Shown here one piece after another: positions 17,444 to 21,930 of a stretch of DNA of 52,737 bases (the stretch's first letter is position 1; every line of letters begins with the position of its first letter). Origin of the DNA: a virus (Duplodnaviria > Caudoviricetes). Location of the stretch: IMG/VR virus record IMGVR_UViG_3300025635_000031, positions 1-52,737 of that record; one strand, 5' to 3'. The notes beneath the pieces were generated by a model. It searched no databases. It was given only the letters and a program-made list of their open reading frames with translations, and was not told the origin of the DNA. The translations under genes and the position numbers were made by a program.

Positions 17444-17473
17444 AAAGGGGGTGTTAAACGCACCCCCTTTTTT
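17444..17473 (+). terminator. intrinsic terminator
   Basis: AAAGGGGGTG-loop-CACCCCCTTT followed by further T residues. Confidence 0.75.
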
Positions 17474-17608: not shown

Positions 17609-18190
17609 ATGGCGAATGCTAATACGCCTTTCGGTTTCCAGCAGTATCAGGGTAACGGCTCTGCTCCGACTTACGAACAGATCCCCGTTGCCATTGCTTA
17701 CAATGCTTCGGCAATCTACTACGGTGACCCCGTAGAACCAGACGCAAATGGTCAAGTTGTTCAGGGTGACGGCACAACCGGAAACCCCGGCGTTGCTGGC
17801 ATCTTTGTCGGCTGCAAGTACCTTTCGGTTTCGCAGAAGCGCACCGTTTGGTCGAACTACTGGCCGGGTTCGGACGTTGCTTCTGGCAACACCGTCGAAG
17901 GTTACATCATCAACGATCCGAATGCCAAGTTTGTTGTCCAGTCGGACAGCACTGGCATCGTTGCTGCCGATGTGAACCTGAACATCGGCTACGCAATCGG
18001 CACAGGCAATACCAACACTGGTATTTCTGGCGCTTATGCAACTGGCGCTGCCGCCACTGCAACCCTTCCTTTCCGCATTGTCGGACTTCTGACGGCTCCT
18101 CCGGGGTCGCCGGGCACCGAAGCTGGCGCGTACAATCGTATCATTGTCGCGTTCAACAACGTTGCCACGAAGTCTCTGACTGGTATCTAA
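17609..18190 (+). CDS. capsid decoration/auxiliary protein
   Basis: MAN.NTPFGF start, IYYGDPV, GIFVGCKY, DPNAKF; directly upstream of the major capsid gene. Confidence 0.7.
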   Translation: MANANTPFGFQQYQGNGSAPTYEQIPVAIAYNASAIYYGDPVEPDANGQVVQGDGTTGNPGVAGIFVGCKYLSVSQKRTVWSNYWPGSDVASGNTVEGYIINDPNAKFVVQSDSTGIVAADVNLNIGYAIGTGNTNTGISGAYATGAAATATLPFRIVGLLTAPPGSPGTEAGAYNRIIVAFNNVATKSLTGI

Positions 18191-18203
18191 GGAGTAGTGA
18201 CCA

Positions 18204-19115
18204 ATGGCCGTTAATCTTTCCGCCATTAAAGACCTTCTCCTTCCCGGTCTACGTGGAATTGAAGGCAAATACGAACAGATCCCGTCACAGTACGACAAGA
18301 TCTTCACGAAGCACGAATCGAAAATGGCCCTTGAACGCACGGCTGACATGCGTTTCCTTGGCCTTGCGCAGCTGAAGACCGAAGGTGGTCAGACTGCATT
18401 CGATAACGCAGCTGGTGAACGTTTTGTGTACAATCAGGAGCATACTGAAATTGCTCTTGGTTACGCGATCACCCGTAAGGCTATCGACGATAACCTCTAC
18501 AAGACCCAGTTCATGCCGTCGAACCTTGGTCTGATTGAATCATTTCAACAGACAAAGGAAATCTATGGCGCGAACGTGCTGAACTCTGCCACGACCTACA
18601 ATGCGTCGATTGGTGGTGACGGCAAGGCTCTCTGCGCTGTGGACCACCCGATTGATGGTGGCACGATTGCGAACCGTCCTCTGGTTGATGTTGAACTTAA
18701 CGAAGCTACGTTGCTGAACGCGATGATCGCGATCCGTACTAACTTCAAAGACAACGCTGGCCTGAAGATCTTCGCCCGTGGCCGTAAGTTGGTTATCCCG
18801 CCGCAGCTTGAACCAGTTGCTATCCGTCTTACTAAGACGGAACTTCGTCCGGGTACTGCAGACAACGATGTCAACGCGATCATGATGACCGCTGGTGGTC
18901 TTCCTGAAGGCTACATCGTCAACGACTACCTGACAGCAGCTGCTACATGGTTCCTGCTTACAAACATTGACGGCCTCTCCTACATGGAGCGCGTCAAGTT
19001 TGAATCGGATATGCAGGTCGACTTCGTAACAGACAACCTGTTGGTGAAGGGCTACGAACGTTATTCGTTCGGCTACTACAACTGGCGTTCGATCTACGGA
19101 TCGTTCCCGACCTAA
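18204..19115 (+). CDS. major capsid protein (Mu gpT-like, HK97 fold)
   Basis: LLPGL, ALGYAIT..AI.DNLY, GDGKAL...HP, KLVIPP.L, WFL.T, ERYSFG motifs; strongly biased codon usage. Confidence 0.88.
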   Translation: MAVNLSAIKDLLLPGLRGIEGKYEQIPSQYDKIFTKHESKMALERTADMRFLGLAQLKTEGGQTAFDNAAGERFVYNQEHTEIALGYAITRKAIDDNLYKTQFMPSNLGLIESFQQTKEIYGANVLNSATTYNASIGGDGKALCAVDHPIDGGTIANRPLVDVELNEATLLNAMIAIRTNFKDNAGLKIFARGRKLVIPPQLEPVAIRLTKTELRPGTADNDVNAIMMTAGGLPEGYIVNDYLTAAATWFLLTNIDGLSYMERVKFESDMQVDFVTDNLLVKGYERYSFGYYNWRSIYGSFPT

Positions 19116-19121
19116 TTAAAG

Positions 19122-19156
19122 TAAGGGCGGTTTCCTTTAATTAGGAGCCGCCCTTA
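19122..19156 (+). terminator. stem-loop after the capsid gene (terminator or processing site)
   Basis: TAAGGGCGG...CCGCCCTTA stem with a short T run. Confidence 0.55.
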
Positions 19157-19165
19157 TTTAACGTT

Positions 19166-19236
19166 CCGGGTGTTCCGATCATACTGACAGCCCCGGCTGA
19201 CTCTGCACAGACAGTATGATCAAATCGTGCAGGAGG
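19166..19236 (+). ncRNA. candidate pseudoknotted cis-regulatory RNA
   Basis: three interlocked helices (see findings), the last overlapping the RBS. Confidence 0.5.
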
Positions 19237-19241
19237 ACCCA

Positions 19242-19700
19242 ATGGGTACTACTACTTTTACTGGTCCCGTTAAGGCGGGTAACGTTCTTAACACGACTGG
19301 CACAACAGCTGGTTCCGTGAAGAACGTTGGTTCTGTCGTTATGGCGCAATCAGCTGCAGTCACGCAGGCTGGCACATCTACGGCTGCTACTACAGGCATT
19401 TGTATTCCGGCTAACAGCCATATCGTCGGCATTGACGTTCTGGCCACTGTTGCTTGGGATGGTGCTGCAGACACAATCAGCATCGGAACAACTGCGGCTG
19501 CAAACCAGCTTGTTTCGGCTGGCGCGTTGACAAACATTGGTCTTACAAAACTTACGCCGGGAACGGATGCTACCCGTACCGCTAAGTGGATTGATGTTGG
19601 CACAAGCGATGTGCTGATCTATGCTCTTTCCGCTAATACGGGCGCTGGTGACGGTGTTGTAACCGTATACTACGTTCAGGCTGAAAATCTAACTGCGTAA
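19242..19700 (+). CDS. virion structural protein (head decoration/fibre-like)
   Basis: MGTTTFTGPVKAG start, beta-rich, AGGAGG RBS. Confidence 0.7.
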   Translation: MGTTTFTGPVKAGNVLNTTGTTAGSVKNVGSVVMAQSAAVTQAGTSTAATTGICIPANSHIVGIDVLATVAWDGAADTISIGTTAAANQLVSAGALTNIGLTKLTPGTDATRTAKWIDVGTSDVLIYALSANTGAGDGVVTVYYVQAENLTA

Positions 19701-19717
19701 GCCATTAGGAGGCTCCT

Positions 19718-19963
19718 ATGAAGGGTAAGACTGTAAAAGACACCAAGGTGACCAAGGCTTACGCTGGCGGCGATAGTAACGTTGCACACGAAGCCCATTC
19801 GGACACGGATGGTTTTAAAAAGGGCGGTCGCGCCAAGAAGAGCATGGGCAAGGCTGCTGGCCTTATGTCCAAGGCCCACGCTGGCCGTAAGCCCCGCAAG
19901 TCGGGCGGCGGCGTGTTCTCTTCGGCAGCTGCCGGAACTCCCCGTCCCGGCTTCAAGGGCTAA
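19718..19963 (+). CDS. small basic xxxGG-motif protein
   Basis: 81 aa with FKKGG and RKSGG; AGGAGG RBS. Confidence 0.7.
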   Translation: MKGKTVKDTKVTKAYAGGDSNVAHEAHSDTDGFKKGGRAKKSMGKAAGLMSKAHAGRKPRKSGGGVFSSAAAGTPRPGFKG

Positions 19964-19985
19964 TTGCTCTTAACGGGTCGAACGG

Positions 19986-20011
19986 CGGGGGGCTTAGGCC
20001 CCCCGTTTTTT
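19986..20011 (+). terminator. intrinsic terminator
   Basis: perfect CGGGGGGC-TTAG-GCCCCCCG stem followed by TTTTTT. Confidence 0.9.
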
Positions 20012-20025
20012 CTAGAGGGTTAAAC

Positions 20026-20301
20026 ATGGCTAAATCTCCTGCGTGGCAACGTTCTGAAGGCAAAAACCCAGAGGGTGGGCTTAATGCAAAGGGTCGCGCT
20101 TCTGCTAAAGCGGAAGGGCATAATCTTAAGCCACCTGTAAGCCGTGAACAGGCTAAGAAAAGTGATGCTTCGGCACAGCGTCGGGAGAATTTCCGTAGCC
20201 GTATGTGCGGTATGAAAGAAAAGTTAACATCCGCAAAGACAAAGCATGATCCAAATAGTCGCATTAATCTGGCCTTAAAAAAGTGGGATGTAAAATGTTA
20301 A
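20026..20301 (+). CDS. small basic conserved phage protein (DUF6321-like)
   Basis: AWQR.EGKNP.GGLNAKGR...F..RM...SRIN.AL..W motif. Confidence 0.7.
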   Translation: MAKSPAWQRSEGKNPEGGLNAKGRASAKAEGHNLKPPVSREQAKKSDASAQRRENFRSRMCGMKEKLTSAKTKHDPNSRINLALKKWDVKC

Positions 20302-20729
20302 AATGCACCCGCTGCAGGCAGGAAAAGCCAGAAACTTCAGAGTTTTTCCCGTTACACAATAAAAAAACTAATGGCCTTGATAGTTGGTGCAGGGCATGCC
20401 GTAGTGCTTATAAATCTGAAACTAGGCGCGGGAAATACCGCGAAATGATCCCAGATTATGTGCTTAAAGATATGCTTAACAGCACTTTTGAATGCACTAT
20501 TTGCGGCGAAGAAGCTGACCTTGTTGTAGACCATGACCACAAAACAAACGTGGTTCGGGGACTTCTCTGCAATAAATGCAATAAGGGTCTTGGACTTTTC
20601 AGGGATAATCCTGAATATTTGGAATTTGCCCGTATCTATCTTTTGGCATCACAGGGCGCGCCGGAGGCGGCTGAATACGTTCAAAAGCATAGTGGGCTTA
20701 GCCTATATGGAGAACAGAGCAATGGCTGA
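20295..20729 (+). CDS. endonuclease VII-type His-Me (HNH) homing endonuclease
   Basis: CTIC...VVDHDH...VRGLLCNKCNKGLG; N-terminal Zn ribbon. Confidence 0.85.
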   Translation: MLKCTRCRQEKPETSEFFPLHNKKTNGLDSWCRACRSAYKSETRRGKYREMIPDYVLKDMLNSTFECTICGEEADLVVDHDHKTNVVRGLLCNKCNKGLGLFRDNPEYLEFARIYLLASQGAPEAAEYVQKHSGLSLYGEQSNG

Positions 20730-21225: not shown

Positions 21226-21930
21226 ATGGCCACAAGCGGCACATATGATTATTCACCATCTCTTGGTGAACTTACGTTGTATGCGTACAATCTGTGCGGT
21301 ATCCGCAACACAGCGCTGTTGCAGGAACACATGGAGGCTGCACGCACGGCAACCAATTTGCTATGCGCGCGCTGGTCAAACCAAGGTGTAAATCTTTGGA
21401 CTGTTGATCTTGTGACTGTGCCTCTTGTTCAAGGGCAAGCTACATATACTGTTGATGATACGACCGTTATGGTGCTGGACGCATACATTACAATTGCGCA
21501 AGGGATGTCTAATACTGACCGTATTATCCTTCCTGTATCGCGTACTGAATATGCGTCATATCCAAACAAAGAACAGCAAGGTTTCCCTACGACATATTGG
21601 TTTGATCGCCTTATGTCTCCTGCTTCTGGCAACCAGACCCTTACGCTCTGGCCTGTCCCAGATGGTGGCGAAGCAACTACTCTTAAGTATTATCGTGTTA
21701 AGCGAATTCAGGACGCTAATTTTACATCAGGCCAACAAATAGATATTCCATATCTTTGGCTTGAAGCATTTGCTTATGGTTTGGCTACACGTTTGGCGCA
21801 AATATTTGCTCCAGCTATGGTGCCAACTTTAAAAGCGCAAGCTGATGAAGCTTATCAAATTGCTGCCGACCAAAATACGGAATATGTGTCACAGTACATT
21901 AGTCCGCAAATACAGGGGTATTTTAGATAA
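21226..21930 (+). CDS. head completion/adaptor protein
   Basis: MATSGT, WSNQGVNLW, SR.EY..YPNK..QG.P, LWPVPD motifs. Confidence 0.7.
   Translation: MATSGTYDYSPSLGELTLYAYNLCGIRNTALLQEHMEAARTATNLLCARWSNQGVNLWTVDLVTVPLVQGQATYTVDDTTVMVLDAYITIAQGMSNTDRIILPVSRTEYASYPNKEQQGFPTTYWFDRLMSPASGNQTLTLWPVPDGGEATTLKYYRVKRIQDANFTSGQQIDIPYLWLEAFAYGLATRLAQIFAPAMVPTLKAQADEAYQIAADQNTEYVSQYISPQIQGYFR

Follow-up and report, generated by a model that had tools for sequence, protein, structure and literature searches.

We analyzed the region between the major capsid gene and the next structural gene in a tailed-phage genome (Caudoviricetes, IMG/VR record IMGVR_UViG_3300025635_000031); "the window" denotes the whole virus record, 52,737 bases long, with an estimated completeness of 92%. 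Both genes are on the + strand, the first encoding a Mu-like gpT-type major capsid protein and the second, starting at 19242, a probable capsid cement (decoration) protein, and between them lie a strong hairpin and a compact RNA element that begins 51 nt past the capsid stop codon. A preliminary description made from the letters alone had placed 3 non-nested helices here, P1, P2, and P3, with the last strand of P3 overlapping the ribosome-binding site (RBS) of the second gene; direct reading gave the same coordinates for the 3 helices, the AGGAGG, and the ATG, and the same strand order. Comparison with related phages adds a fourth helix, B, and indicates by covariation that the interlocked helices are real and make up a conserved compact knotted RNA found in ~150 distinct elements of related phages. 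The 52.7-kb genome has exactly 1 copy, in the orientation of the cement gene. The features of the locus are listed below, where A1, A2, and A4 are alignments of related elements described further on.

18204-19115, + strand: major capsid protein gene (303 amino acids), Mu-like gpT type; Pfam PF10124 Mu-like_gpT at 21.4 bits (cut-off 20.1), PHROG 371 major head protein
19119-19159, + strand: strong hairpin directly 3' of the capsid stop codon; terminator-like in relatives, with a poor T-run here
19166-19170, + strand: P1 5' strand CCGGG, partner 19192-19196; double changes at 4 of 5 pairs in A2; in A1, which was not fitted, 87% of cells paired
19177-19186, + strand: P2 5' strand GATCATACTG (10 nt), partner 19212-19221, a perfect 10 bp; 9 of 10 pairs covary
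19187, + strand: unpaired conserved A at the P2/B junction, in the middle of the first GAC box; invariant in A1 and retained in canonical Mu-gpT-DE
19188-19190, + strand: helix B 5' strand CAG, partner 19197-19199; 2 of 3 pairs covary, the middle pair occurring as C-G, A-U, and U-A
19192-19196, + strand: P1 3' strand CCCGG, inside the loop of helix B; from pair counts on A1, A2, and A4
19197-19199, + strand: helix B 3' strand CTG; from pair counts on A2 and A4
19200-19201, + strand: unpaired conserved AC at the B/P3 junction, end of the second GAC box; invariant in A1 and likewise found in canonical Mu-gpT-DE
19203-19208, + strand: P3 5' strand CTGCAC, partner 19227-19232; 8 Watson-Crick-compatible versions, 6 of 6 pairs with double changes
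19209-19211, + strand: unpaired conserved AGA at the P3/P2 junction, start of the third box; G and second A invariant in A1, first A nearly so
19212-19221, + strand: P2 3' strand CAGTATGATC; from pair counts on A1, A2, and A4
19227-19232, + strand: P3 3' strand GTGCAG, its last 2 bases being the first 2 of AGGAGG
19231-19236, + strand: Shine-Dalgarno (SD) sequence AGGAGG, read directly, 5 nt ahead of the ATG at 19242
19237-19247, + strand: weak hairpin, tentatively "P4", of the spacer ACCC with GGGT of codons 1-2, leaving the start-codon AU in the loop
19242-19700, + strand: gene for a 152-amino-acid probable capsid cement/decoration protein, N-terminus MGTTTFTGP; from tblastn, AlphaFold, and Foldseek

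The strands follow one another in the non-nested order P1 5', P2 5', B 5', P1 3', B 3', P3 5', P2 3', P3 3'. On the comparative evidence, the ~67 nt are a three-way junction in which P2 is the closing stem, B a 3-bp mini-hairpin, and P3 the third arm. The predicted fold is interlocked twice, once between the loop of B, 5 of whose 6 bases pair with the upstream P1 strand, and once between the junction strand CUGCAC and a strand downstream of P2, the P3 3' strand lying 5-10 nt beyond P2. All 3 helices of the preliminary description are thus present, but helix B, with its 3 bp flanking the P1 3' strand, had been overlooked there. B and P1 both covary and might form simultaneously. The recurring GAC triplets of that description (19186-19188, 19199-19201, and 19210-19212 by direct reading) correspond to a junction conserved across relatives: 6 conserved unpaired purine-rich bases (A, AC, and AGA) lie in these "GAC boxes," with the G and C ends of the boxes belonging to P2 and B.

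Folding of the single sequence was dropped as evidence for the element. The best nested fold of 19160-19250 had a z score of -1.26, with 23 of 200 shuffles folding equally well, and is not above chance on its own. The 166-nt stretch 19105-19270 folded to -60.3 kcal/mol with z = -4.13, a value reached because the upstream hairpin at 19119-19159 is included; the 60 nt upstream of P1 alone fold to -26.0 kcal/mol. In the window, 19 inverted repeats of at least 10 nt were found within 60 nt, 6 of them perfect, P2 among these.

The evidence for the fold comes from relatives. Capsid protein relatives were identified in 597 viral contigs, and among the best 80 of these 597 loci (88-92% protein identity), the element was present in 43, absent from 32, and not assessable in 5 that were too short. 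Further elements were added by pattern scans, and every pattern fixed a single strand, so that partner strands were free to vary. In A1, for which 115 elements (113 distinct) were aligned by plain MAFFT with no structure fitting, 94.7% of 2698 cells were paired over the 3 originally proposed helices and B, vs 79.6% after shuffling (reached in 0 of 500 shuffles) and 24-40% with slid partners, and 18 of 24 pairs had changes on both sides. A covariance model built from P1 and P3 alone identified 1 copy in the window, 1 in each of 99 loci, and 1 junk match; in the resulting alignment, A2 (101 rows, including the junk row), 97.1% of cells were paired (P1 98.8%, P2 93.8%, B 100%, and P3 99.5%). Because the first pattern had fixed P3 on one side, a second sample of 65 distinct rows (A4) was gathered via the P1/B strand with P3 unconstrained, and double changes were found in 6 of 6 P3 pairs and in 22 of 24 pairs overall. 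The P3 versions were CUGCAC/GUGCAG, UUGCAC/GUGCAA, AUGCAC/GUGCAU, CUGUGC/GCACAG, AUAUGC/GCAUAU, AUGCGC/GCGCAU, UAGUAG/CUACUA, and UUGUAG/CUACAA. Phage DSL-LC04 (L441:2917-3015) is a third variant, having UAGUAG/CUACUA as P3, retaining P1, B, and the unpaired A, AC, and AGA, and replacing the otherwise invariant innermost P2 pair G-C by U-A. G.U cells exceeded A.C cells (64 vs 11), which assigns the pairing to RNA of the + (gene) strand. All 3 helices of the preliminary description hence covary in A1, A2, and A4, and the compensatory changes that it had asked of homologues are borne out by pair counts against shuffled and slid controls, as is its proposal of a compact structured RNA with interlocked helices.

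One locus (L099:10291-10381) carries the element followed by a degenerate SD sequence (GTAGGAA) with no cement-type start codon nearby and may hold a decayed or relocated copy. In contigs of prokaryote genomes, 2 true elements were found among the 120 pattern matches listed (L506 and L566), on contigs of metagenome-assembled genomes labelled Spirochaetaceae and Aestuariivirga that are possibly binned phage contigs; host assignment from prophages was dropped, with just 2 of the 120 matches listed being true and both on such contigs.

We identified a close association of the element with the downstream gene. A gene of 220-250 amino acids of the Endonuclease_7/HNH type is inserted after the capsid gene in 7 capsid-matched loci, and the element is then 766-866 nt from the capsid stop codon and directly before the MGTTTFTGP gene. 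The element stays with the cement gene despite the insertion and is therefore a leader of that gene and not a tail of the capsid gene; as judged from sequence, 19166-19247 is the structured 5' leader of the capsid cement gene in + strand RNA. The RBS is part of this arrangement family-wide, as the preliminary description had supposed for the window: of 144 distinct elements, 135 have an SD-like tetramer starting within 3 nt of the P3 3' strand, and in 105 its start coincides with base 6 of that strand. Around the AUG, the spacer covaries weakly with codons 2-3 in a swapped-partner energy test, the energy of P4 with native spacer and coding start averaging -4.67 kcal/mol vs -3.40 +/- 0.18 with shuffled partners (0 of 300 reach the native value).

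The assignment of the gene at 19242-19700 as decoration or cement-like, also made in the preliminary description, agrees with a tblastn match, an AlphaFold model, and Foldseek matches. No Pfam family was found for the product, and a PDB sequence search returned nothing relevant. With tblastn, the window protein matched a protein annotated as "cement protein" in phage DSL-LC04 and proteins annotated as hypothetical in Roseobacter phages CRP-901 and CRP-902. The AlphaFold model (predicted local distance difference test [pLDDT] 81.5) has a disordered N-terminal arm and a beta sandwich, and its Foldseek matches in the PDB were the Pam1 capsid (7eel_H; E 8e-5, template-modelling [TM] score 0.54/0.58), the KHP30 capsid/cement structure (7dn2), the trimeric cement protein of KHP40 (7dou), and the GP4 capsid (8h89_J). 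In BFVD, look-alikes were mostly uncharacterised, and the named ones were tail fibre, tail protein, structural protein, ribonuclease III, and collagen-like, with none labelled cement. The modelled jelly-roll cement fold and the place of the gene between the capsid gene and an SU10-type adaptor gene (21226-21930, downstream) are those of cement proteins, and the product is probably, not certainly, a capsid cement protein. Across the downstream family (L201-L440 and window 19242-19700), the N-terminal arm M-x-x-T-T-F-x-G-P is kept while the C-terminal part varies from ~67 to 295 amino acids in canonical loci, as if a conserved capsid-binding arm carried exchangeable outer domains.

The preliminary description had called the RNA undescribed, which is correct in part. 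It is a divergent relative of the Rfam family RF03012, Mu-gpT-DE, with which it shares context, downstream family, and, in part, the boxes, but the Rfam model misses it and has no pseudoknots. The Rfam search gave RF03012 as the only suggestive match (window 19182-19218), sub-threshold at 15.2 bits vs a gathering cut-off of 49, with E 0.14 on 81 nt; in the alignment, CUGACAG, CUGAC, and GACAG fall on the boxes of the model, and 8 model positions are deleted. Canonical loci were collected with a pattern of the Rfam consensus, which returned at least 120 viral contigs. All 10 canonical loci tested passed the cut-off with 68-75 bits, and no variant or hybrid locus did (0 of 10 and 0 of 18; 0 of 28 together); conversely, of 30 canonical loci, 28 were matched by our variant model, though weakly (23 bits at most).

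Both forms lie downstream of the hairpin or terminator of a Mu-like gpT capsid gene and directly before a gene starting M-x-x-T-T-F-x-G-P. The canonical order is terminator, element, SD, and ATG, with downstream proteins starting M-A-N/T-T-T-F-x-G-P, and a canonical Mu-gpT-DE element is present in Roseobacter phage CRP-901, the protein of which shares 43% identity with the window protein. The RF03012 consensus boxes are CUGACAG ... CUGACA ... GACAGGAG; their counterparts in the window, CUGACAG, CUGAC, and AGACAG, keep order and role around a closing stem and an inner hairpin, with the UAGCCA strand and the fusion of GACAGGAG with the SD replaced. In the canonical form, the closing stem has 4 bp (CCUG/CAGG), with the 3' strand CAGG being part of the SD GGAG, whereas P2 of the variant has 7-10 bp and excludes the SD. 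The canonical inner hairpin is long and variable with no P1 seen, whereas that of the variant has 3 bp and uses its loop for the pseudoknot P1. In the variant, the internal-loop strand has a covariation-backed partner, P3, just 5' of the SD, unlike in the pseudoknot-free Rfam model. In RF03012, the SD and start codon come right after the closing stem (model positions 36-53), whereas the window SD lies 10 nt beyond the P2 3' strand, past the P3 3' strand. On this comparison of sequences, we place the window element in the wider Mu-gpT-DE family, as a divergent and more elaborate branch that falls outside the present Rfam definition.

Intermediate forms were also identified. By eye, a hybrid subgroup (L444, L449, L469, L472, L474, L483, L486, L488, L495, and L497) combines P1, B, and P2 of the variant type with a UUGCCA or UCGCCA strand of the canonical type and the start AUGGCUAAU, and a local hairpin pairs the SD with arms that differ among members yet stay complementary. 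The conserved core is thus joined to differing RBS arrangements, with P3 before the SD in the window, the SD inside P2 in canonical loci, and an SD hairpin in the hybrids. Canonical loci L201-L320 have, by eye, a recurring box like TGTATAGT/TGTATAAT that follows the T-run of the terminator and precedes the element by ~10-15 nt. If this box is an extended -10 promoter, as it may be, a transcript would begin with the element.

Mu-gpT-DE reportedly originates from the work of Weinberg et al. in 2017. The main text of that study has no mention of Mu-gpT-DE. In the literature searched, Rivas 2020 is the sole work naming the motif, stating that its Rfam and ZWD structures differ, without detail. A 2023 catalogue, PMC10690425, reports 10,006 viral candidate RNAs, and the window variant might be in its supplements. 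A term search of a 2026 ribozyme preprint found no phage or capsid mention, and the full-text literature search returned no work describing an RNA located between capsid and cement genes. The four-helix doubly interlocked variant, the assignment to the cement leader, and the link to Mu-gpT-DE are not in print among the main texts searched; supplements might record a canonical pseudoknot.

We hold with moderate confidence that the element controls translation initiation of the cement gene in cis. The last strand of the knot would end inside the SD and a weak hairpin would hold the AUG, so that the 30S ribosomal subunit would have to dock against the knot or partly open it, and the knot may thereby set or gate cement-gene initiation on late transcripts that run through the post-capsid hairpin. 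An effector would most likely stabilise the fold, with unassembled capsid or cement protein as a first guess by analogy with ribosomal-protein and T4 gene 32 feedback, and a small ligand as an alternative. The effect on translation, its direction, and the effector are proposed on indirect grounds, and any given effector is considerably more doubtful than control in cis as such. A conserved core with variable RBS surroundings resembles the pattern of riboswitches and protein-binding operators.

Several observations weigh against such control. The SD core GGAGG is unpaired in the conserved fold of the window variant, and the fold could therefore be neutral or helpful to initiation and not repressive. 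Cement proteins are usually required in roughly the numbers of the capsid protein, a poor fit with simple repression. The proposed effector is a candidate only, and the conserved unpaired core has just 6 nt. P4 pairs in fixed register were found in 60-65% of cells vs 54-59% after shuffling, with slid controls equally good. In canonical loci, the UAGCCA strand and UGGCUA of the start region (AUGGCUA) are complementary, and the single testable position pairs in 128 of 212 cells vs ~117 expected; TTGCCA occurs with GCA in 17 of 79 cases and TAGCCA with GCA in 0 of 111, while 61 of 79 TTGCCA keep GCT (one position variable under the search patterns). Coding constraints leave almost nothing there to covary. 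Further, 32 of 75 assessable loci with an 88-92% identical capsid are without the element; it is dispensable or replaceable.

The knot might instead be a module that has no effector, a constitutive 5' stabiliser of the mRNA, an insulator, or a standby platform for the ribosome, tuning expression without switching it; we regard this, the likeliest of the alternatives, as doubtful. In this form, and with the same reservation, the knot would protect the cement cistron against nucleases, keep it from misfolding with the upstream hairpin, and display the SD single-stranded between 2 helices. The unpaired SD core of the window variant agrees with it, as do the small extent of the conserved unpaired bases (6 nt, no large ligand-like pocket) and the fact that 32 of 75 related loci do without the element. 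An insulating fold would also be useful where a strong hairpin (-15 kcal/mol or lower) ends within 8 nt of P1, which we found in 97 of 144 distinct relatives. However, a simple stabiliser would not require 4 covarying helices, the junction and much of P3 are conserved within subgroups in sequence and not just in pairing, and canonical and hybrid relatives pair the SD, a feature that suggests regulation more than protection.

A self-cleaving ribozyme, or a ribonuclease processing site, that cuts late polycistronic RNA between the capsid and cement cistrons and so gives them different decay rates is improbable. Compact multi-pseudoknots with few invariant junction purines are typical of small ribozymes, and the architecture of the element is of this kind; its location, between 2 cistrons that possibly need different mRNA levels, would also suit a cut. 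However, no Rfam ribozyme family (hammerhead, twister, pistol, hatchet, HDV-like, and others) was matched at E up to 10 on 19100-19300 or 19165-19245, and processing does not need strict adjacency to the SD. A contig from an RNA library spans the element uncut, a weak argument given that contigs cannot show ends.

That contig comes from a freshwater metatranscriptome library, is ~95% alike, and covers 18972-20168 unbroken, from the 3' end of the capsid gene across the hairpin and the element and through the cement gene. This hints only weakly at read-through and co-transcription of capsid and cement genes, since the library, available as assembled contigs only, may contain DNA. Another RNA-library contig, of depth 2.5, joins opposite strands exactly at the 2 P2 arms (window 19177/19222), probably a hairpin-induced artefact of assembly or complementary DNA synthesis. 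Uncovered stretches and this opposite-strand joint were set aside as evidence of expression; contigs show no ends, strand, or level.

We consider it very improbable that the element acts in trans as a small RNA (sRNA), or in cis on transcription, like the put or EAR antiterminators, by letting polymerase pass the terminator-like site at 19984-20007 after the cement unit. The Rfam type label of RF03012, "Gene; sRNA," the possible -10-like box seen by eye before canonical elements, and the existence of that downstream site speak for these roles. In the window, however, the hairpin tail and P1 are too close to accommodate a promoter, the element is not followed by a terminator ahead of the gene, and neither role explains the fixed SD spacing. 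Complementarity by chance, or a palindrome acting in DNA (for example, as a protein-binding site), would suit a single sequence that is statistically unremarkable but is effectively refuted by compensatory changes in 22 of 24 pairs over ~150 sequences, by slid controls of 24-40%, and by a strand-specific bias of G.U over A.C that fits RNA and not duplex DNA.

The surroundings of the locus vary among relatives. A terminator scan identified terminator-like sites with T-runs at 17444-17470 and 19984-20007; the hairpin at 19119-19159 is without the T-run that the rule of the scan requires. A four-gene unit at 17609-19963 (a 193-amino-acid gene, capsid, cement, and an open reading frame of 81 amino acids) is bracketed by these 2 terminator-like hairpins. 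In L003 (3563-4315), L016 (3427-4170), and also L004, L028, L038, L063, and L067, a homing-type Endonuclease_7 and HNH_3 gene overlaps the element with its 3' end. The window itself has an endonuclease VII gene at 20283-20729, and the stretch 20169-20721 is skipped in the ~95% alike contig, which suggests mobile endonuclease genes around the capsid-cement module. Among loci L002-L081, with capsids 88-92% identical, the downstream modules are wholly different, comprising the element and a cement gene, no element, or other genes whose products start ...F-S-G-P, and this points to mosaic exchange immediately after the capsid gene.

A wider and distinctly tentative possibility is that Mu-gpT-DE and its pseudoknotted variants form a new class of phage riboregulators coupling cement synthesis to capsid assembly, or that the junction is a new riboswitch pocket or the active site of a new small ribozyme. 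As a riboregulator, the leader knot would offer its 3 GAC boxes to free cement (or capsid) protein, and binding would trap or exclude the ribosome. Any of these 3 would be the first such device described for a structural gene of a tailed phage. Short of that, Mu-gpT-DE, an orphan so far modelled as a simple hairpin and labelled "sRNA," is now placed, together with a large sister group that had gone undetected, in the 5' leader of a cement gene, atop its RBS, and the sister group has a four-helix doubly interlocked fold backed by covariation. The current Rfam model overlooks at least ~150 distinct relatives. The result provides a testable hypothesis on the post-transcriptional balance of capsid and decoration proteins, along with a small natural pseudoknot (~67 nt) for structural study.

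Pseudoknotted translational riboswitches include preQ1-II, SAM-II/V, and guanidine-III. The element is small like these, with a pseudoknot 3' strand that reaches the SD and a conserved core with variable RBS parts; unlike in these, the structural-gene context suggests no ligand, and the SD core is unpaired in the window variant. No Rfam riboswitch family was matched on either stretch (81 and 201 nt) with E values allowed up to 10. Autoregulatory pseudoknot operators at the RBS are present in the leaders of Escherichia coli rpsO (S15) and the alpha operon (S4) and of phage T4 gene 32. The last of these is also cited in PMC10690425. The likeness of our element to such operators is one of description, and its topology, with 2 interlocks on a three-way junction, is more complex than the H-type knot of rpsO. 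Like the rpsO, alpha-operon, and T4 gene 32 leaders, the element is a predicted 5'-leader pseudoknot that abuts or includes the RBS, and the protein that would be regulated is consumed by a large assembly.

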